Notes: generated by a model from the letters alone, not told the origin. A stretch of 64,000 nucleotides of DNA from a virus (IMGVR_UViG_3300035696_000002); one strand, 5' to 3'. Counted from the stretch's first letter, positions 6,700-15,655 are shown. Made by a program: numbers and translations.

Positions 6700-7089
6700 A
6701 TGCCGAAGTTCGTCATCGAAGCTGGGGCCATCGAGCTTGTCCGGGGCCGTCCCATCGAGGTCGAGATCGAAACGGGCGGTGCCATTACCGCACTGACGAA
6801 GCTGGGCCTCACTGTTTGGGAGCGGGACAAGTGGGATGCGACAGTAGCAAAGATCAAGGAAACTATGGATTTTGATTTCCCTGAGCCTATCGTAACGAAC
6901 CTCACGGTGCCCGGCTACATGCTGCTCTTGGATTTCTACAACGCCGTCGCCTACCTGACCCTCCACCACGACGTACTGGGCGGCGAAGTCGGCGACAAGG
7001 TACTCGGCGAGACGGCGGTGGTTTATCCATCAAAACTTGGCCCGCTGCTTGAGGCCGTGGACAAAGAATGGTGGAAGAGGAAGCCATGA
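6700..7089 (+). CDS. hypothetical protein
   Basis: Packed ORF. Confidence 0.6.
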   Translation: MPKFVIEAGAIELVRGRPIEVEIETGGAITALTKLGLTVWERDKWDATVAKIKETMDFDFPEPIVTNLTVPGYMLLLDFYNAVAYLTLHHDVLGGEVGDKVLGETAVVYPSKLGPLLEAVDKEWWKRKP

Positions 7090-7727
7090 TTAAACTACCC
7101 AGCGATGAATTCATTTTCAAGGTTCGGGCCATGACCGACGAAGAGTTGATCGCCGCCTACAAGGAAGCCCGCACTTGCATGGACAACCTTGAAGTGGAAC
7201 GGATGAACTGCTGGAACCGCATGATGGAGATTCACAAATTGCAGGACGACATCGGCGGCGAGATGCAGGCTTTGGCCGTCAATCTTCACTACGTCCGCAA
7301 GCTGAAGTTGGAACGATGAGAAACCTAATGAGCGAATTTGACAGGTTGAAAGCACAGAAAGAGCAGTTCGAGCAGCGGGAGGTTTGCCGGATCATCAATG
7401 TCCTCCGGCAGGCCTTCGTGAAGATCGCAAACGGGGCCGAGGCCATGAAGTTCGAGGACGCCGTCCACGCGGTCTACCCATTCGCCACAGACTGGATTCC
7501 GCCGAGTCAGGAACCGCCGACACAGGGATAACCATGGGACTACGACCAATGCCGATGATGCCGCTGCCCAACTCCCCGAAGGAGCACTGGGAAAAGTACT
7601 ACGCCGCTATGCGGCGGATGCAGTACGTCGCCGGGCTACAGATGCGAGTTCTCGCTATCGGGATCGGGCTCAGCATCGGCCTTGCAATCGCCCTGATCGC
7701 CATCGCAAAATAATTTTTCGCCAGTAG

Positions 7728-7756
7728 TTGACATTTTCCGAAATACCCAGTACTAT
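7728..7756 (+). promoter_or_regulatory. sigma70-type promoter of the tRNA operon
   Basis: TTGACA-17 nt-TACTAT. Confidence 0.85.
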
Positions 7757-7793
7757 ACAGAGAGTCAGCAAACTGCTGGCCCGAGACACTACC

Positions 7794-7892
7794 ATGACCT
7801 CAATGAAACATAATACGGTCGCACGAAAGCAGTGGCGGAATCGTCGCCACGACGGCGTTGGTCTGTCCTCGGACACGGAGTTTGGGAAGTAA
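7794..7892 (+). CDS. attenuator leader peptide MTSMKHNTVARKQWRNRRHDGVGLSSDTEFGK
   Basis: 32-codon ORF between promoter and terminator; core enriched in K/H/N/R/Q/W codons. Confidence 0.75.
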   Translation: MTSMKHNTVARKQWRNRRHDGVGLSSDTEFGK

Positions 7893-7933
7893 ACAAAGCA
7901 ACCAAACCCAAAACGAGAGCAAACAGACCCGCC
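7854..7933 (+). promoter_or_regulatory. putative antiterminator helix
   Basis: GGCG/CGCC, GGTCTGT/ACAGACC, CTCG/CGAG, TTTGGG/CCCAAA pairings; overlaps the terminator 5' arm. Confidence 0.7.
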
Positions 7934-7958
7934 AAAAACTGGCGGGTTTTGCATTTTT
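7927..7958 (+). terminator. intrinsic terminator (attenuator)
   Basis: ACCCGCCA-loop-TGGCGGGT followed by TTTGCATTTTT. Confidence 0.85.
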
Positions 7959-7971
7959 AGTGGGAAAATTC

Positions 7972-8045
7972 GGGGGTGTCGGTTAATGGCAAACCAGCGG
8001 TCTCCAAAACCGTGACTGGGGGTTCAAGTCCCTCCACCCCCGCCA
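7972..8045 (+). tRNA. tRNA-Trp(CCA)
   Basis: Cloverleaf, anticodon loop CTCCAAA, encoded CCA. Confidence 0.95.
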
Positions 8046-8064
8046 AAAGATTGAGGCGGAGATT

Positions 8065-8692
8065 ATGGAATTGAAGATTGAACAGCAGACGCGAGGCACC
8101 CGCATCCTGCGGGGGGAGTCAGCTACCCGGAGGCGACTTCATCTCATCTAGTCTCGCAACAGCAGCGACGGCAGCCGGGTACGAGGAAATCGTACTCCCG
8201 TCGCTAGAGCCAGCCGCTCTCTACGCTGAAAAGGCTGGCCCTGAGATTCTGGGACAGATGTACTGCTTCCCGGACAAGAAAGGCAGGCAGTTGTGCCTGC
8301 GACCGGAAGGAACGGCGACCTGTCAGATACTCGCCGACACGGTAATGAAAATGGAGCGAGACGTGAAGCTCTGGTATCTGACGACCTGTTGGCGTTACGA
8401 ACGACCACAGGCTGGGCGGTACCGGGAGTTCACACAGTTCGGGGTGGAAATCCTGAACCCACGCGGCCCCGTCCGGGATGAGTTAGTGGCTTTGGCCGAA
8501 AGCATGGTGCGGCAGTTCACGGATCAGTATGAAGTGAACGCGGCAGTCAAGCGGGGGCTGGCCTACTACGTCGAGGATGGCTTCGAAATCAGTTGCCCGG
8601 CACTGGGGGCTCAGAAGCAAGTCTGCGGCGGCGGTTCATACAAGCAAGGCTGCGGTTTCGCAATTGGGGTAGATCGCATGATGCTTGTGTGA
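8065..8692 (+). CDS. histidyl-tRNA synthetase-like catalytic domain (no anticodon-binding domain); +1 frame break near 8137-8147
   Basis: RGTR N-terminus, GYEEIVLP, LRPEGT, WRYERPQAGRYREFTQFGVE, GGGSY, GFAIGVDR. Confidence 0.85.
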
Positions 8693-8697
8693 CGTAT

Positions 8698-8774
8698 GGT
8701 GGGCGTAGCTTAATGGTTAAAGCATCTGGCTGTGAACCAGAAGGTTGCGGGTTCGATTCCCGTCGCCCACCCCA
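8698..8774 (+). tRNA. tRNA-His(GTG)
   Basis: Cloverleaf, G-1/C73, CCA. Confidence 0.95.
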
Positions 8775-8785
8775 AAATTTTATAT

Positions 8786-8863
8786 GGTGTCATTGGTGTA
8801 GGGGCTTATCACGGCGGACTGTGAATCCGCTATTCGTGGGTTCGAATCCCACATGACACCCCA
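8786..8863 (+). tRNA. tRNA-His(GTG), second divergent copy
   Basis: Cloverleaf, G-1/C73, CCA. Confidence 0.9.
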
Positions 8864-8879
8864 AGATTGGAAGTGCACC

Positions 8880-9032
8880 ATGTGGTACGACGACAACGTG
8901 TGCGAAGTTTGCGGGTTGGAAAAGCCGGACGTTCGTGAACGCGAGTGCGGTTACTCGATGGAACTGACTGGCGAAGTGCACTTGGAAGTTATTTGCGATG
9001 ACTGCGAACACCAGCATTGCATGGACGTGTAG
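8880..9032 (+). CDS. small Cys-rich protein (50 aa)
   Basis: CEVC..CDDC; stop codon lies inside the next tRNA. Confidence 0.5.
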   Translation: MWYDDNVCEVCGLEKPDVRERECGYSMELTGEVHLEVICDDCEHQHCMDV

Positions 9033-9099
9033 CTCAGTTGGATAGAGCGTTCCCCTCCGAAGGGAAAGGTCGCAGGTTCGACTCCTGCCATGTCCACCA
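9023..9099 (+). tRNA. tRNA-Arg(CCG)
   Basis: Cloverleaf, loop CTCCGAA, CCA. Confidence 0.95.
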
Positions 9100-9103
9100 G
9101 TTT

Positions 9104-9343
9104 ATGAGTAGAACATTTACAATTCACGATACGGAACTCGCTACGTTCGAGAAGTTCAAGGCAGAGCACGAACCAAAGTGCGTCTACCACGGCGACACGA
9201 TGGCGAATCCGGGGCACATTCGGTACTTCACGCCGACATCGGCGTACACGATTATGTTCAAGCCGACAGGCGTCGGTGACGGCGTGCATGTGAAGTGCCT
9301 TTGCGGTGAAGAGGTAGACATCACCGATTACGAATTGTGGTAG
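9104..9343 (+). CDS. hypothetical protein
   Basis: ORF between tRNAs; PTGVG..VKC.CGEE.DITDY..W. Confidence 0.65.
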   Translation: MSRTFTIHDTELATFEKFKAEHEPKCVYHGDTMANPGHIRYFTPTSAYTIMFKPTGVGDGVHVKCLCGEEVDITDYELW

Positions 9344-9347
9344 TTTT

Positions 9348-9424
9348 GCTCGTGTAGCTCAACAGGAGAGAGCGTACCCCTGCGAAGGGTAAGATTTGTG
9401 GTTCGAGTCCACTCACGAGTACCA
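9348..9424 (+). tRNA. tRNA-Arg(GCG)
   Basis: Cloverleaf, loop CTGCGAA, CCA. Confidence 0.9.
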
Positions 9425-9435
9425 TTTTAGATTTT

Positions 9436-9513
9436 GCCCGGTTACCCATTGGACATGGGGCCTCGTCTTCGAAACGAGGACGCTCAAGGGTTCGAATCCC
9501 TTACCGGGTTCCA
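9436..9513 (+). tRNA. tRNA-Arg(TCG)
   Basis: Cloverleaf, loop CTTCGAA, CCA. Confidence 0.9.
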
Positions 9514-9589
9514 GATTTTGGTCTGACACACGCTGGTGTCAGCGTAAGCGAGGGTCGCCGTAATCAGTCGCCCTTCGGCCATGAAGTTT

Positions 9590-9666
9590 GTTTCCGTAGC
9601 TCAACTGGATAGAGTACGTGGCTACGAACCACGGGGTTGGGGGTTCGAATCCCTCCGGGAACACCA
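9590..9666 (+). tRNA. tRNA-Arg(ACG)
   Basis: Cloverleaf, loop CTACGAA, CCA. Confidence 0.95.
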
Positions 9667-9679
9667 GATGTTGTAACAT

Positions 9680-9766
9680 TGGGATGTAGAGCGTAATTGG
9701 TAGCGTGCACGGCTGTTAACCGTGTGTCGAAAGACCTTGTAGGTTCGAGCCCTACCGTCCCAGCCA
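9680..9766 (+). tRNA. tRNA-Asn(GTT) with long variable arm
   Basis: Loop CTGTTAA; variable hairpin GTC-GAAA-GAC; CCA. Confidence 0.88.
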
Positions 9767-9783
9767 AATTCATAGGAGGCGTT

Positions 9784-10038
9784 ATAGGCAAACAGAAGGA
9801 AGTGAAATTCAGCGTCAGGGTCAGCGACCATGACTACGGTTACAGAGTCGAGCAGGTGAAGCGATTTCTGGCCAAGAAGCATAGTGTTTTGGCTGTGGTG
9901 CAGTTTAAGGGGCGTGAGATCACACATCCCGAACTTGGGCAAGAGTTGTTGGCCCGGCTGCTAACCGATCTGGGGAGAAACGGAACTCCCGTCCTGAAGG
10001 GACGATCACTTCAAGTTCTGATTACGCCTAAGAGTTGA
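9784..10038 (+). CDS. infC: translation initiation factor IF-3, C-terminal domain only (probable ATA start)
   Basis: KEVKF..DHD..RFL..FKGREITHPELG; AGGAGG SD upstream of ATA. Confidence 0.8.
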   Translation: MGKQKEVKFSVRVSDHDYGYRVEQVKRFLAKKHSVLAVVQFKGREITHPELGQELLARLLTDLGRNGTPVLKGRSLQVLITPKS

Positions 10039-10115
10039 GCGGTGCCGTAGAAGGCAACCCTGTTCAATAGGAGGGCAGAGACCAAAGCGGTACTGCTCAA
10101 AAAGTTTTGATGTAT

Positions 10116-10203
10116 TGGGAAGTAGGAAAATTGGCAACCCCAGAGGATTCTGAATCCTCCGTGCTTAAGCACACTGAAGGTTCGAATCCTTCCTTCCCAG
10201 CCA
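10116..10203 (+). tRNA. tRNA-Gln(CTG) with long variable arm
   Basis: Loop TTCTGAA; variable hairpin GTGC-TTAA-GCAC; CCA. Confidence 0.88.
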
Positions 10204-10216
10204 AGTTTAGGAGTCG

Positions 10217-10286
10217 TGGACTGTAGCTTAGTTGGCAGAGCACCCCCGGCAAGGGGGAGACGCGGGTTCGATTCCCGCCAGCCCGA
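10217..10286 (+). ncRNA. tRNA-like RNA with 5-nt anticodon loop, no CCA
   Basis: Canonical D and T arms; CCCCC-GGCAA-GGGGG arm. Confidence 0.65.
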
Positions 10287-10369
10287 ATACGAACGACTCT
10301 TAGTGCTGAGAGTGGACGAGGATTTGTCCTGATCGTATCGGGACGTAGAATTGTCCGCTCTCGTTGCAT

Positions 10370-10444
10370 TCCTCGGTAGCTCAGGGGTAGAGCAGGTGGC
10401 TGTTAACCACCCTGTCGGAGGTTCGAATCCTTCCCGAGGAGCCA
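10370..10444 (+). tRNA. tRNA-Asn(GTT)
   Basis: Cloverleaf, CCA. Confidence 0.95.
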
Positions 10445-10446
10445 AG

Positions 10447-10547
10447 TTAGGTTAGAAGGTCGCGGACACAGGAACCGCCTCTCGTGTACTGTACGCTTCG
10501 GCTATCGACAGAGGACGGGTGTAGCTCAGGGAGAGCATCTAACCTGA
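10447..10547 (+). ncRNA. circularly permuted tRNA-like RNA (YrlA Y-RNA-like topology)
   Basis: TAGGTTAGA/TCTAACCTG closing stem, then AGGTC, T-like arm, looped acceptor stem, TAGCTCAGGGAGAGCA D arm. Confidence 0.6.
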
Positions 10548-10560
10548 AAGTTTGAAGCTG

Positions 10561-10628
10561 GGGGGCGTAGCTCAATGGTAGAGCAGCCCACACAAGGGAA
10601 GATGCGGGTTCGAGTCCCGCCGCCCCCA
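10561..10628 (+). ncRNA. tRNA-like RNA with degenerate anticodon arm, no CCA
   Basis: Perfect acceptor, D and T arms; shortened anticodon arm. Confidence 0.65.
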
Positions 10629-10716
10629 TAAGGCTTCATTAAAGGGCCAGAGATAGACCGGGACGCCGGGAACGTCGTGAAATCCTCATAGGCCCCACGT
10701 GATTAGAAGTAAAGCT

Positions 10717-10793
10717 GGGTGTGTGGTGTCAACGGCTAACATATCTCCCTCTTAAGGAGCAAGATGCTGGTTCAAATCCAGTCACACCCACCA
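10717..10793 (+). tRNA. tRNA-Lys(CTT)
   Basis: Loop CTCTTAA, CCA. Confidence 0.9.
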
Positions 10794-10814
10794 AGTTTGT
10801 GTTAGAGTGAAGTC

Positions 10815-11627
10815 ATGTTGCATCACGTAATTCAGAAGGACATGTTTCACGAGTTCGGGTTTCATACTCTGATTCGTGCGATGGAAGAAAACGAAGTCCC
10901 GTATTGCGTGGTGAAGATCATCCCGTTCAGTCATGAACTGACGTGGGAGTCAGGTGTGCCGCTGCCGGAGAGCACGGTGCCGACAATGATCTGGGGCATG
11001 ACCTGTGTTGAGGAAGTCGCCGGAGTAAGACAATGGACGCCCGGCGTGTTCAAGAACGAGAATTTCGATTTGCGTGTGATCGGCGAGAGGTACGGCGAGA
11101 ACATGCTGAATGCCGACGCGAAGTTTTGCAGGCTGGGGGATATTCCAGCGTTTGAGGGATCGGCATTCATTCGCCCGGTACACGACACAAAGTCGTTTAC
11201 CGGAGCCCTTATCAATGGCGAAGACCTGCGAACTTGGCAGGATCAGCTAATGCAGTTGAAGGGTGAGTTCACGACGTTGAGTCTGGACACCCCGGTGCTG
11301 TACGCCAGCCCGAAGAAGATTGATACTGAGTGTCGCTTCTTTGTGGTGGATGGAAAAGTTATCACTGGTAGTTCGTATCGGGTTAACGGTAGAGTATTAT
11401 ACAAGAGGGTGAACGCCGACAACCCGATGTGCATCCCCCTGAGGGAGTTTGCACAGAGAATGGTTGACCAGTGGCAACCTGTTGAAGCATTCGTGATCGA
11501 CATCGGACGAGTCGGCCAAGAATGCAAAGTGATCGAGATCAACTGCTTGAATTCGTCGGGGTTTTACGACTCGGACATGGCGGCGGTGGTCAGGGCGATC
11601 ACGAATTTACCAAGTTTGGATCGGTAG
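10815..11627 (+). CDS. ATP-grasp domain protein (DUF4343-like)
   Basis: FIRP..DTKSFTG, ECRFFVVDGKVITGS.Y, FVIDI..KVIEIN..NSSGFY. Confidence 0.8.
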   Translation: MLHHVIQKDMFHEFGFHTLIRAMEENEVPYCVVKIIPFSHELTWESGVPLPESTVPTMIWGMTCVEEVAGVRQWTPGVFKNENFDLRVIGERYGENMLNADAKFCRLGDIPAFEGSAFIRPVHDTKSFTGALINGEDLRTWQDQLMQLKGEFTTLSLDTPVLYASPKKIDTECRFFVVDGKVITGSSYRVNGRVLYKRVNADNPMCIPLREFAQRMVDQWQPVEAFVIDIGRVGQECKVIEINCLNSSGFYDSDMAAVVRAITNLPSLDR

Positions 11628-11693
11628 CTCAATTGGCAGAGCAGGTGACTCTTAATCATCAGGTTGGGGGTTCGATTCCCTCCCGGTTCACCA
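11618..11693 (+). tRNA. tRNA-Lys(CTT)
   Basis: Cloverleaf, CCA. Confidence 0.95.
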
Positions 11694-11696
11694 ATT

Positions 11697-11765
11697 TTAC
11701 GGGTCGCTTAGAAGACGGAAGCAGGCGGCGGTACCGCCGTTGCGGGTTCAATGTCCGCCCCGTGA
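11697..11765 (+). ncRNA. tRNA-like RNA with 5-nt anticodon loop, no CCA
   Basis: GCTT/AAGC D stem, GGCGG-CGGTA-CCGCC arm, GCGGG-TTCAATG-TCCGC T arm. Confidence 0.55.
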
Positions 11766-12486
11766 ATTCGGGTCGAAGGCTAAATGCCTGATTGTTCCCG
11801 TGGACACCCAAACGAAAGAGGCGTGACCAAGCCGGAGAGTCGGCACCAGTTTTATGCGAAAGACGTGTCCCAGTTGTCTCGGTGATGACGCAGCAGAGCG
11901 AGAAGGCCGGAATTTCGACCCTCTCTATGGCACCGTAGAGATTTACTGCACGTACTGTGGCTCGTTTGTGGACATGATCTGGCGATGGCAGACAGACGAT
12001 TCGGTCTGGCAAAAGTTTAAGGAACAAGCGAGGGGATATGTGGGGTGCTCCTGAGGACGTGCCGGGTCGTTGTAACGCCCGGCTTTTTGTTGGGGACGAT
12101 TATGGCGACAACACCGCGACGTTCATGTGCGAGTTAGACCCCGGCCACGAAGGTAAGCACCGGGAAGTCTTCCGCGATGGCACAGCGGTCATAGAGTGGG
12201 AGACCGATGAGAGGCAGACCGGGAACGATCCTGACCTGTAAGGATTTTGCGGATTTGGGCATCGAATGTTGCGAGGCCTGCCACGACGTAGAGAATCTTG
12301 ACCCGCTTTTACGGATCAGGGTCGATGGGCAGGAAGCCCTAGTTTGTTGTGAAATAATGGCATTTTTCTACCCTGACGAAGCAGATCAGGCGGATTTTTG
12401 GCAAGCTCAAATGGACGAGGCCGAGGCGTTAAACCCACCAAAGCCAGAGGACTTTGAAAACCCTGAATAGAAGGGGAATTGATTTT

Positions 12487-13035
12487 ATGGCTGACACTCT
12501 AGTACTTGACATGTCGGGAACCCCAATCGGGTTCGTTTCTTGGCAGCGGGCTGTGAAGCTCTACTGGGAAGACCGTGCCGTCATCGTGGATGATGACGCA
12601 AACCGGATTCTCCACTCGCCGTCCTTCGAAATGAACATGCCGACCGTCATCCGTGCTAAGAACTGGGTGCAGCGTCGGAAGAAGGAACGTGTCCCGTTCT
12701 CGCGTCGCAACATCGCGATCCGCGACAACAGCCGTTGCCAGTACTGCAATAAGCTGTTGCAGACGGCCCAGTACACGATGGATCACGTCATCCCTCGTTG
12801 CAAGGGCGGAACGTCTACGTGGACGAACCTCGTGCTTGCTTGCATCCGTTGCAACAAGTACAAGTCTGGTTGCACGCCGGAGGAGGCAGGTATGCATCTG
12901 TTGAAGCAGCCTATCGAGCCGAAGGCAGATGACCCGAAGTACAACTTCAAGCTTCGGATCAAGAAGATGCACCCGACGTGGAAGCCGTGGGTCGATGGCG
13001 GCTGGCTGTACTGGAACATCGAACTGGACAAGTAG
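12487..13035 (+). CDS. HNH endonuclease (McrA/HNH_5-like)
   Basis: FSRRNI..RD..CQYC..TMDHVIPR..GG...WTNLV.AC..CN..K. Confidence 0.9.
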   Translation: MADTLVLDMSGTPIGFVSWQRAVKLYWEDRAVIVDDDANRILHSPSFEMNMPTVIRAKNWVQRRKKERVPFSRRNIAIRDNSRCQYCNKLLQTAQYTMDHVIPRCKGGTSTWTNLVLACIRCNKYKSGCTPEEAGMHLLKQPIEPKADDPKYNFKLRIKKMHPTWKPWVDGGWLYWNIELDK

Positions 13036-13456
13036 GAGAAGTCATGAGCCTAGTGCTAAGCGGCGATTTTTGCGGCTGTGAGAAGCATCATGGCTCATGG
13101 CACTCCAACTGCCCCGAGTGTGACACGGAAGAGGGCAAGTCCTGCTGGAAGTTTTTGCACGTGCAACTACCGTGCGGTAAGTGCGATAATTGCATTCGCA
13201 ACGGGAACAAGCCGTATGATTGGCGTAAGGAAATGCTGGGCGGGGAGTTTACCGAAAGTTTCATCGCTTGAAGGAGCCTTATGGACGTTGACAGTATTCG
13301 CAAGTTGGGCATTAGCAGCAGCCTCGGAGACAAGGAAACAGTAGCTCTCTTCGAGAAGTTGATCGCATACGGCTGGATTGACGGGGCCGGGCGGTCGTTA
13401 CCGTGGACGGCTCATCTTCGCCGCAAGGATCGTGCAGCGGCAGCGGGGCGTGAGTA

Positions 13457-13714
13457 ATGCCGTACAACTACCCCGGCTTACTTCGCAGCGAAGACACCAA
13501 CGACCACGATTGGCGGATTGTGTGTGATGTGCTGGATGCAGCCATCGCTCACTGGAAAAAGCGGAGCGAAACCGAGAGTGATTTGTTCGGTTCGGCCTAC
13601 GGTCATCACTACGTAGGGGCTCTCACAGAAGTTCAGATCGCGTTACTCGGCGGCGAAAGCGACAACGTCGATGAGAAGGCGATTGAGGCCATGATTAAGG
13701 CCGCAAAAGTTTGA
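13457..13714 (+). CDS. hypothetical protein
   Basis: TAATG-coupled ORF. Confidence 0.55.
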   Translation: MPYNYPGLLRSEDTNDHDWRIVCDVLDAAIAHWKKRSETESDLFGSAYGHHYVGALTEVQIALLGGESDNVDEKAIEAMIKAAKV

Positions 13715-13800
13715 TCCCGTAGTCTAGTTGGACAAGGCAGCGGTTTCCTAAACCGCAGAGCGAAAGCTCATCGGGGGTTCGAATCCCTCCGGGATCACCA
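13713..13800 (+). tRNA. tRNA-Arg(CCT) with long variable arm
   Basis: Loop TTCCTAA; variable hairpin GAGC-GAAA-GCTC; CCA. Confidence 0.9.
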
Positions 13801-13821
13801 TTTTGATTGCAGGAGCACGCG

Positions 13822-14094
13822 ATGTTTAAGACGATGCAGTTGGTTTATCGGAACATGGTTTGGAACCGCCCGAAGATCGGGCTGTGGGGTTTGATCGTAG
13901 TCGCGTTAGTGGCCACGACAGACCTGTACTTCAGCATTTTGCGGATCGGTGGGGGCCGGGTAACTGCTGGCGTATTCGCCGCCTTCGCACTGAGCTTCTG
14001 GTTCGTCGGGTTGCCAATGGTTCTGACACTGATCGACCTGAAGATGAAGCCCCAGAGGATGGAAAAAATCTGGGCACAGATGCACAAGCAGTAA
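13822..14094 (+). CDS. small membrane protein
   Basis: AGGAG SD; two hydrophobic helices. Confidence 0.6.
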   Translation: MFKTMQLVYRNMVWNRPKIGLWGLIVVALVATTDLYFSILRIGGGRVTAGVFAAFALSFWFVGLPMVLTLIDLKMKPQRMEKIWAQMHKQ

Positions 14095-14100
14095 ACGTTT

Positions 14101-14174
14101 TGCCCCTTCGTTCAACGGCAGGACACTTGGCTCTGAACCAAGGTATGGTGGTTCGAATCCATCAGGGGCAGCCA
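14101..14174 (+). tRNA. tRNA-Gln(CTG)
   Basis: Cloverleaf, CCA. Confidence 0.95.
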
Positions 14175-14661
14175 AGTTTTGGGCTTCAGAATCCATTTGT
14201 ATATGGAACTGAAACCGTATAAGATCGTTGCAATGCCGTTCGCACAATCTGACGCGACCGCCGAATACACGGAGTATGCGATCAGCGAAGATCAGGCCTT
14301 GCGAAATTTTGAACGACGTTACCCGGCGTACCGGGTTAAAGAAGTAAGGGAAGCGTGAGCAAGTACGACGGAACAATTTGCAACGACTGTAACACCGAGA
14401 TTTATCAGGACAAGTGCAACTGTGATTATTACCGGGCACACCCTGAGGCAACCTTACCCGAGAATGAAACATCTAGGGAGATAGGTCGCAGGATTCGAGA
14501 AGACTTTGGCGATGAGATCGCCGGAGCATTGAAATAGATTATGACCATGCTAAACTACATGCCGCTGATTGCCGCAACCGAGATCATGGTTCTCGTTGTG
14601 CCCCGCCTCGTCTTCGCGATTGCCGCGACTCCTCTCAGACGAAAACGCTAACCCAATCCTT

Positions 14662-14743
14662 GGGGGCGTAGACTCGTGGTCTTCTAAACCATAAGAGCTT
14701 AACCGGACTGAAAATGTGGGTTCGAATCCCACCGCTCCCTCCA
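14662..14743 (+). tRNA. non-canonical tRNA-Arg(TCT) lacking the D arm
   Basis: Acceptor, anticodon and T arms plus CCA intact; 7 nt in place of the D arm; 23-nt variable region. Confidence 0.7.
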
Positions 14744-14760
14744 TACCTTTGCGTACCTTT

Positions 14761-14835
14761 GCCTCCGTAGCTTAACGGTAAAGCTACCGCCTTTTAAGCG
14801 GATAGATGGGGGTTCGATTCCCTCCGGGGGTACCA
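14761..14835 (+). tRNA. tRNA-Lys(TTT)
   Basis: Cloverleaf, CCA. Confidence 0.92.
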
Positions 14836-14837
14836 AT

Positions 14838-14917
14838 GGGGGTGTAACTCAATCGGGTCAAGAGTACCCGGCTTTTAACCGGGAAGTTGCAGGCAACCCA
14901 ATCTGCCGCCCCCACCA
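14838..14917 (+). tRNA. tRNA-Lys(TTT) with aberrant T loop
   Basis: Loop CTTTTAA, T loop CAACCCAA, CCA. Confidence 0.8.
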
Positions 14918-15133
14918 TTCCTTCCTATGCTATAATCACCACGTGAAATACAAAGACTTTTTCATCGACGAGGGCAAATACTTCATCGACGCCGAGAAGG
15001 TGACTCGCGAAGTGTTCAACGAACGCCGATTGAAAGAGTGCTGGCACCACTGGGTGCCGATAGGTGATTCCGACAAAGACGGCGAATGTCGTTACTGTGA
15101 ACTCAAAGTTGTCGGGGGCAAAAAAGTAGTCGA

Positions 15134-15655
15134 ATGATTACCTGCGTGACAGCACCGAGTCGAAGCGGCACCAGCTTGACCATGCAAATGCTACAGGCAG
15201 CGGATGTGCCGCTGTGGTGGGACGCTCTCCCTAATCGCACAGCGTGGAATCCACGCGGACACTTCGAGATCAACACGCGAAAGAACAACGACTGGACGAT
15301 CCTTCTGCCGCTCTGTGAAGGCAGGGCCATCAAGGTGATGCCGTTTGATCTGTACCGCCTGACGCCGGATCACGAATACCGTTTCATCACAATCCTCCGC
15401 AATCCAACAGCCGTCGATGCGTCGCAGCAAGCTGCGGTGGAATTTCGTGGTGCAAAGATGTCTGACGCGGATAAGACCAAGGAATGGCAGCGGTATACGC
15501 TGGACTTTATCAAGGACTACCCACACGTCATCGTCAATTTCGACGACCTGTTCAACGGCAAGGCCCAGCAGAGCATCGGCGAGTTCATGGGCTTCGACGA
15601 CCTCCAAATCGCGAAGATGAACGATTGCGTAGACCCGGAACTCAGGCATTTCTAA
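15134..15655 (+). CDS. sulfotransferase-family P-loop protein
   Basis: PSRSGTSLTMQML, NPRGHFE, AIKV, ILRNP..V.AS. Confidence 0.75.
   Translation: MITCVTAPSRSGTSLTMQMLQAADVPLWWDALPNRTAWNPRGHFEINTRKNNDWTILLPLCEGRAIKVMPFDLYRLTPDHEYRFITILRNPTAVDASQQAAVEFRGAKMSDADKTKEWQRYTLDFIKDYPHVIVNFDDLFNGKAQQSIGEFMGFDDLQIAKMNDCVDPELRHF

Follow-up and report, generated by a model that had tools for sequence, protein, structure and literature searches.

How does a huge phage decide when to make its own transfer RNAs (tRNAs)? This question is raised by a locus in the 64,000-nucleotide (nt) stretch of the viral sequence IMGVR_UViG_3300035696_000002 analysed here (the window), in which a promoter, a short open reading frame (ORF) and a terminator stand ahead of an array of tRNA genes. 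The window corresponds to bases 79749-143748 of a single phage contig of 463,033 base pairs (bp) with 55% G+C, and coordinates below are those of the window unless marked "genome". In a first-pass annotation it was suggested that the codons of the short ORF mirror the tRNAs encoded downstream, and that a ribosome stalling on them would switch the array on. Our analysis supports this proposal: with a probability of roughly 80%, we consider the element to be a predicted ribosome-mediated (leader-peptide) transcription attenuator which gates a phage tRNA operon.

The promoter, the 32-codon ORF, the terminator and the first tRNA gene at 7972, as described in this annotation, were all recovered, on the plus strand. 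The promoter is of the sigma-70 type, TTGACA-17-TACTAT (7728-7756; TTGACA at 7728-7733 and TACTAT at 7751-7756), with 10 of 12 positions matching the consensus. The leader ORF spans 7794-7892, from the ATG at 7794 to a TAA at 7890-7892, contains a second in-frame ATG at 7803 and encodes the peptide MTSMKHNTVARKQWRNRRHDGVGLSSDTEFGK. It is followed by an intrinsic terminator (7919-7958; -18.5 kcal/mol), composed of a 9-bp G+C-rich core stem (7926-7948), an extension (7919-7952) and a U-rich tail to 7958; the sequence after the stem is UUUUGCAUUUUU. The whole element covers about 230 nt. The first gene of the array, tRNA-Trp at 7972, begins 13 nt past the terminator, and a promoter scan listed nothing promoter-like over these 13 nt, from the terminator tail (7958) to the gene, so that the array would be transcribed only via terminator read-through.

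The putative regulated unit (7972-14914, plus strand) comprises at least 19 tRNA or tRNA-like genes interspersed with ORFs, as detected by ARAGORN and Rfam. Its content is Trp, His (two genes), Arg with anticodons CCG, GCG, UCG, ACG and CCU, Asn (two), Gln CUG (two), Cys, Lys CUU (two), Lys UUU (two) and two genes of unclear identity. The array had been thought to serve only six amino acids; tRNAs for Lys, His, Asn, Arg, Gln and Trp are present, but the array also holds a tRNA-Cys and the AGG-reading tRNA-Arg(CCU). Codons 5-19 of the leader (7806-7850), which we call the sensor, read exactly as they had been quoted: 12 of these 15 codons encode K, H, N, R, Q or W and are read by array tRNAs (Lys, His, Asn, Arg CGN, Gln CAG, Trp). 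Both Lys codons (AAA, AAG) and both His codons (CAT, CAC) occur among them, as do the full set of four CGN codons, TGG and two copies of AAT; Gln is represented by CAG and not by CAA. Against random coding windows drawn from this genome at equal length, the presence in the leader of 11 of the 15 codons readable by the array is significant (P = 0.0017). In addition, the match is specific to one frame, with 13/31 codons in the ORF frame and only 6/30 and 9/30 in the other two.

The same arrangement is repeated elsewhere in the genome. Six of its seven tRNA arrays have a promoter and leader module, and each leader uses the codons of its own array, which bears out the expectation that other arrays would have leaders matching their own tRNA content: besides the leader described here, this was observed for five further arrays of the genome and also in relatives. 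Thus, the leader MNRISSLSSSSSSFGG... of the array with four Ser tRNAs and Leu(UAA) contains all six Ser codons plus UUA. A minus-strand leader, MKQTQTTRTTTTQRITIT..., belongs to the array with two Ile, three Thr and three Gln tRNAs; ...ATAVATTGGVVCAGEAGTVAAGAAVED... belongs to the Val/Gly/Ala/Asp/Glu/Cys (GNN-codon) array, MNRVSLSLSLLYSLL... to the Tyr/Leu/Phe array and MNLMRPFTMFRPCMPTM... to the Pro/Gln/Met/Phe array. These other leaders have a similar promoter and a short ORF usually starting with MN, and four of the five, all except A6, are followed by a T-run terminator. The promoter type, TTGACA ... TATTAT then ACAGAGA, is common to the other leaders of this genome and to its transfer-messenger RNA (tmRNA) gene. 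The fraction of own-array codons covered by the six leaders is 7/8, 11/15, 8/8, 14/17, 7/10 and 5/9, and among the 5040 ways to assign the six leaders to the seven arrays, the true assignment ranks first. We also observed that a 17-nt motif, GAAATCAGAGACTTCCG, lies between stop codon and terminator in both the Thr/Ile/Gln leader (genome about 237330, minus strand) and the GNN leader (genome about 304300, plus strand), which is evidence that leaders arose by duplication with their sensor codons rewritten. Early genome-wide regular-expression scans for a promoter, short ORF and terminator were too strict, recovering two or three modules, and were not used for these counts. The array of GNN decoders (Val, Gly, Ala, Asp and Glu tRNAs, plus Cys) lies outside the window, at genome 304344-308157 on the plus strand.

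We then considered 22 loci fetched from IMG/VR via the HisRS-like protein that is encoded within the array. A short array-matching ORF stands ahead of the array in seven of them, with differing sets of amino acids. The L001 leader, MLYTTIHTKTNTTCIKRN (MLYTTIHTKTNTTCIK is quoted as an example), precedes Cys/Asn/His/Thr/Ile/Lys tRNAs, and the L008 and L009 leaders, MTFMSYSHSCSYSHSS and MTTIISSHSYCYSSSYHS respectively, both precede Ser/Cys/Tyr/His tRNAs. The L011 leader, MALVKKHSSKSFKFWSHS, stands ahead of Lys/Arg/Trp/Ser/His/Phe, the L022 leader, MNNMNNIYRIYRNCNINYNMEEIC (MNNMNNIYRIYRNCNINY is quoted as an example), ahead of Glu/Asn/Cys/Ile/Tyr, and in L002 and L003 Glu-rich leaders precede Glu arrays. 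When the six in-genome leaders and the seven from relatives were taken together, the mean coverage of the own array was 0.72 versus 0.30 for other arrays, and none of 200,000 random leader-array assignments attained the observed sum. No codon-matched leader was seen ahead of the mixed arrays of L007, L010 and L018 (about 45 tRNAs). At these three loci (L007:1500-1700, L010:3600-3790 and L018:4350-4560), a conserved, structured-looking segment (..CACCGAGCGAGAAGCGAGG..CCGGAGGGTCGGGA..) lies between a promoter-like site and the first tRNA. In another related phage, L013, the array is made mostly of CNN decoders (Gln, His, Leu, Pro).

This frame-bound match bears on the idea that the leader RNA itself would bind tRNAs by codon-anticodon pairing, in the manner of a T-box and independently of the ribosome, the ORF being incidental. 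T-box leaders likewise read tRNA status and make a terminator/antiterminator choice upstream of translation-related genes. However, a T-box RNA binds one uncharged tRNA directly, needing neither ribosome nor ORF, whereas here twelve different specifier triplets would lie in an unstructured run unlike any T-box, and the matching triplets fall in one frame, bounded by an ATG and a stop codon, in the 13 leaders as well as in the 11 homologues of this leader described below. Moreover, Rfam searches over 7600-8100 (E up to 1) and 7700-15200 (gathering score) returned only tRNA, and neither a leader family nor a T-box. We therefore consider a T-box-like sensor very improbable.

A leader-peptide attenuator requires more than matching codons, since the position of the ribosome has to decide between alternative RNA structures. 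In the ten leaders with a T-run terminator, we searched the ORF for the strand that pairs best with the terminator 5' arm, with codon-shuffled ORFs as a control. In all ten, this strand is found shortly 3' of the sensor, often within Gly-rich sequence, and mimics the 3' arm of the terminator. The individual P values range from 0.009 to 0.16 and give a combined P = 3.6e-8 (Fisher), a value in which independence is overstated since the in-genome leaders are paralogues. In the leader studied here, nt 60-74 of the ORF (7853-7867) pair with 7920-7933 (-17.0 kcal/mol, P = 0.017). The annotation had paired 7854-7871 with 7914-7933; this pairing was recovered by the duplex search and also by folding of the nascent transcript, whose minimum-energy structure it is until the 3' arm of the terminator has been made. 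The 5' strand of this antiterminator, GGCG-UU-GGUCUG-UCCUCG (7854-7871, codons 21-26), starts two codons past the last sensor codon, and its 3' strand (7914-7933), located by folds and alignment, is shared with the 5' arm of the terminator. According to the folds, a further hairpin across the stop codon of the leader (7877-7909) closes the antiterminator loop and would be melted by a ribosome reaching the stop; it is weakly conserved, with 56% of alignment cells paired.

The effect of a ribosome on this choice was predicted by folding with ribosome masks; since equilibrium folds show no switch, as detailed below, folds of the nascent transcript were used. With the A site of a stalled ribosome at codons 5-16, the predicted probability of the antiterminator is 0.95-0.99; it decreases to 0.78 at codon 17, 0.60 at codon 18 and 0.09 at codon 19, and is 0.00-0.03 at codons 26 and 29. 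On these masked-fold probabilities, the antiterminator would stay free when the ribosome stalls at any of nine among the twelve matched codons, and would be lost when it translates on. The in silico geometry is thus that of an attenuator in which a stall on the sensor frees the antiterminator and onward translation prevents it, and the polarity suggested by the annotation is the one predicted by ribosome-masked folding. In the paralogous Ser leader (genome 62682-62865), which has a protector hairpin, the folds follow the textbook scheme even at equilibrium, with stalls at codons 5-10 swapping the terminator for GGGGGCUUUGG:CCGAAGCCGCC.

We also considered the inverse polarity, in which efficient translation would be needed for read-through, for example because it melts a fold that favours the terminator or because it blocks Rho; a stall would then lead to termination, which amounts to positive feedback. 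Such a scheme is in line with the fact that the terminator is always favoured at equilibrium, and a ribosome stalled at the end of the sensor (codons 18-19) does mask the antiterminator strand, which would favour termination. However, most sensor codons precede this strand, which is therefore left uncovered by a ribosome on 9 of the 12 that match, and translation past codon 19 destroys the antiterminator; the stalls at codons 5-10 of the Ser leader favour the antiterminator, and positive feedback would keep the arrays off exactly when their tRNAs run short. The inverse polarity therefore appears to us improbable.

Conservation was assessed on metagenome-scan contigs with a HisRS-like protein 80-84% identical to that of the window; 11 of these homologues have the same synteny, namely leader, terminator, tRNA-Trp, HisRS-like gene, tRNA-His and tRNA-Arg. 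In agreement with the first-pass proposal, for which conservation in relatives was a critical point, all 11 keep the ORF, the composition of the sensor and the pairings. An in-frame ORF of 32-44 codons is found in 11/11 (for example MTLKNANSTVTRKHQGHVRSNQRNNRWFGTGLFCVGEPTN), and the best 15 codons of each homologue contain 9 to 12 from the array set (K/N/R/H/Q/W). On contigs that hold enough of the array, own-array coverage by the leader ranges from 9/10 to 11/13 codons. In the 12-sequence alignment, whose mean column identity is 56%, two motifs do not vary, GGTCT.T within the ORF and GACCC within the terminator arm. The antiterminator core GGUCUG:CAGACC is kept, and one of its pairs is compensatory, both sides having changed in L025. 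For the antiterminator, 71% of cells are paired versus 31-44% in slid controls, a comparison which somewhat favours the structure since the latter was derived from the window sequence. At the position of the terminator, each homologue has its own G+C-rich hairpin and T-run; terminator covariation on this alignment was uninformative, the loop region being gapped and shuffles scoring equally high. The -35 and -10 elements are recognisable in most of the 11 homologues, several being degenerate.

Within the sensor, codons 14-19 can fold into a covarying 7-bp hairpin (GUGGCGG / UCGCCAC; 7832-7850), with 96% of cells paired in the 12 sequences versus 17-59% in slid controls. Three of its pairs are changed on both sides, all of them in the window versus the other 11 sequences, possibly as one lineage event. 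This hairpin excludes the antiterminator strand, and its position suggests a candidate RNA-polymerase pause or synchronising hairpin that would be opened by the ribosome. A small hairpin in the 5' untranslated region, at the predicted transcript start (7764-7780, from folds), lies in a stretch that the alignment identifies as an insertion specific to the window, missing from the homologues.

These data also bear on a simpler explanation, namely that the promoter, short ORF and terminator form a stand-alone small gene beside the array, producing a 32-amino-acid basic peptide or a small RNA of about 195 nt, with the tRNAs made by leakage or other transcription and without any sensing. The three features do constitute a complete transcription unit, and an action in trans is conceivable by analogy with Sinorhizobium, where, according to two reports, the released attenuator RNA and leader peptide (rnTrpL and peTrpL) can act in trans (PMC6614838, PMC7298713); such a function could coexist with attenuation. 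Nevertheless, a stand-alone gene leaves unexplained the tracking of arrays by leaders in 13 independent or paralogous cases (0/200,000 permutations) and the mimicry of the terminator arm in 10/10 leaders, and there is no room for a further promoter ahead of tRNA-Trp. In addition, the homologues vary in peptide sequence yet keep the composition and the RNA pairings. This explanation thus retains only a small probability.

Taken as a leader-peptide attenuator, the element would work as follows. Transcription would begin at about 7763 from the host-type promoter and the 32-codon leader would be translated, codons 5-19 sampling the codons of the downstream tRNAs. If charged tRNAs are scarce, the ribosome would slow down at codons 5-16, leaving 7854-7871 free to pair with the emerging 7914-7933; the 5' arm of the terminator would be sequestered, with read-through into tRNA-Trp, the HisRS-like gene and the remaining array. 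If decoding is fast, the ribosome would cover 7854-7892 during synthesis of the terminator, which would then fold and stop transcription at about 7958. As the products are the sensed tRNAs themselves, the circuit would provide a negative-feedback, on-demand tRNA supply, and the tRNA set is probably made only when ribosomes read its codons slowly. We infer that the leader is translated and that the two structures compete kinetically, the kinetic argument coming from secondary-structure models. The physiological trigger would presumably be depletion, cleavage or poor charging of host tRNAs during infection. We propose at least six circuits of this kind in the genome, each serving one amino-acid-sorted array.

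Several observations weigh against this interpretation. At equilibrium, the full-length leader folds to the terminator under every ribosome mask, hence switching must be kinetic; in the trp leader, the terminator is likewise the more stable fold. The antiterminator is also predicted to form in the nascent transcript without any ribosome (probability 0.99), which means that there is no trp-type protector hairpin and that an untranslated leader would read through, and it is predicted to re-form with a ribosome on the stop codon, in a model where sterics are ignored. No clear Shine-Dalgarno sequence was found upstream of the leader ATG, and translation is deduced only from conservation of the ORF. 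The codon match is imperfect, as the Thr, Val and Ala codons of the sensor region have no array tRNA and the Cys and AGG tRNAs have no leader codon. An excess in synonymous-codon use over the expectation from codon usage is only a trend (combined P = 0.07), so that a sampling of every codon is not established beyond the match in amino acids. The five other in-genome modules, as paralogues, are not fully independent. One array, with three tRNA(CUA) amber-suppressor-type genes and a tRNA-Lys (genome 238747-239667, minus strand), is the only one without a codon-matched leader. Finally, three codon-matched leaders, the in-genome A6 and those of L002 and L003, have no T-run terminator: hairpins without a T-run follow the Pro/Met/Phe leader (genome 345871-346043, plus strand) and lie at L002:15711-15820 and L003:15584-15700, and such leaders may have a different read-out (processing, Rho or translation).

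With these points taken into account, every feature of the broad class of ribosome-mediated attenuators that can be tested in a sequence is present, while the narrow trp/his-type feature, a 1:2 protector hairpin by which an untranslated leader terminates, is absent from the predicted structures. Enterobacterial attenuators of amino-acid operons are among the closest known systems. Among them, thrL (Thr and Ile) and ilvL/ivbL (Ile, Leu and Val) are multivalent, and trpL, hisL, pheL and leuL respond to a single amino acid. The phage element resembles them, and the general principle of leader-peptide attenuation as given in PMC1183508, in having a promoter, a short ORF with regulatory codons and a terminator whose 5' arm pairs alternatively with an ORF-proximal strand. 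As in these systems, a stalled ribosome is predicted here to select the antiterminator, with a terminator that is thermodynamically stronger and a choice that is kinetic. Unlike them, it would regulate the tRNAs which read its own regulatory codons rather than biosynthetic enzymes, and its sensor comprises six amino acids and 11 codons, mostly once each, in place of runs of one to three amino acids. It is also phage-encoded, with at least six codon-specific copies per genome, has no Rfam leader-family similarity and, in this copy, lacks the 1:2 protector hairpin, so that the predicted default without translation is read-through.

A related case is pheM, the leader of the pheST (phenylalanyl-tRNA synthetase) operon in E. 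coli, whose attenuator senses one amino acid. In both cases, attenuation concerns a component of the translation apparatus and responds, for the phage element by prediction, to the supply of charged cognate tRNA, and a HisRS-like gene lies behind the phage leader too; however, pheM controls a synthetase, whereas the main cargo of the phage leader is a set of tRNA genes and six amino acids are sensed. Phage tRNA clusters are generally seen as compensating for a mismatch in codon usage, for degradation of host tRNAs or for tRNA-targeting defences. The cargo here is alike, as such tRNAs are believed to stand in for host tRNAs that have been depleted or cleaved; cleavage of tRNA-Tyr by Septu is an example of such a defence (PMC13096335). 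As far as we found, studies of these clusters treat the purpose of the tRNAs and not a codon-matched sensor switching each array, and full-text literature searches returned no published account of such leader control for phage tRNA genes. The novelty lies in the cargo, namely tRNAs that decode the regulatory codons themselves, in a sensor as broad as six amino acids and 11 codons, and in the modular reuse within a phage genome.

Why phages have tRNA genes, and how they deploy them, has long been asked. A sensor composed of the very codons that the controlled tRNAs read implies that decoding speed is measured per codon class, that supply is on demand and that negative feedback is built in; it brings the tRNA pool itself, beside amino-acid synthesis, within the reach of leader-peptide attenuation and represents a compact natural part reporting the shortage of chosen tRNAs. 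It also offers a reason why tRNA genes are grouped by amino acid or codon class, with one array, for instance, decoding nearly all GNN codons, as each array must match one sensor. More broadly, huge phages may carry modular, reprogrammable multi-codon sensors, the arrays being demand-driven circuits which detect the loss of the matching host tRNAs by stalling and respond with replacement tRNAs, co-expressed with HisRS-like, IF3-C and ATP-grasp translation helpers. The arrays would then act as an inducible counter-defence and a tRNA homeostat, and not as a constitutive supplement to codon usage; the loss of host tRNAs could result from host shut-off, anticodon nucleases or other tRNA-targeting defences. 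This wider view is tentative, and we regard it as possible rather than probable.

Protein-coding genes also lie within the array. Directly after tRNA-Trp, and before the tRNA-His genes, lies the gene of the HisRS-like protein (8078-8692, plus strand; 204 amino acids; Pfam tRNA-synt_His, E = 7.8e-21), which is truncated, with the catalytic-core motifs only and without the anticodon-binding domain. This gene has the same length and position in dozens of related phage contigs, L023-L036 among them; a HisZ-like partner and a tRNA-His-related enzyme are both possible functions. Further downstream, on the same strand, are a protein consisting only of the C-terminal domain of IF3 (9775-10038; Pfam IF3_C, E = 1e-19) and an ATP-grasp protein of the R2K clade (10815-11627; Pfam R2K_3, E = 4.9e-18), which would be co-transcribed behind the leader. 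An HNH endonuclease ORF is also found among the tRNA genes. Some of the tRNA genes are unusual: tRNA-Cys(GCA) (10217-10286) has G in place of U at position 33, and tRNA-Arg(CCU) at 13713 reads AGG, a codon not used in the leader. With Rfam, we also observed a tRNA-like gene at 10561-10628 (57 bits) with a 6-nt anticodon loop, another of 80 nt at 14662-14740 whose anticodon looks like UCU and which carries a long additional region, and a third at 14840-14911 with a UUU anticodon.

In the whole contig, ARAGORN detected 68 tRNA genes and one tmRNA gene, and the tRNA arrays are sorted by amino acid or codon class. The tmRNA gene (genome 242851-243196) has upstream of it the same promoter type as the leaders. 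A search with 7000-11000 returned no close phage in GenBank, all matches being tRNA-sized; related contigs of up to 578 kb exist in IMG/VR and metagenomes, and peat metagenome runs contain DNA of this contig and may be its source, no RNA run being listed among those that contain the sequence. Global recoding of TAG was considered and is not supported, as reading TAG as sense lengthens ORFs no more than the TAA and TGA controls do, and TAG terminates 66 of 384 long ORFs. Outside the window, on the minus strand at genome ~240740-240690, the same promoter type is followed by ATG CTC TAG, after which the frame is open for another ~125 codons; the suppressor-tRNA array is located about 1 kb downstream of this site.

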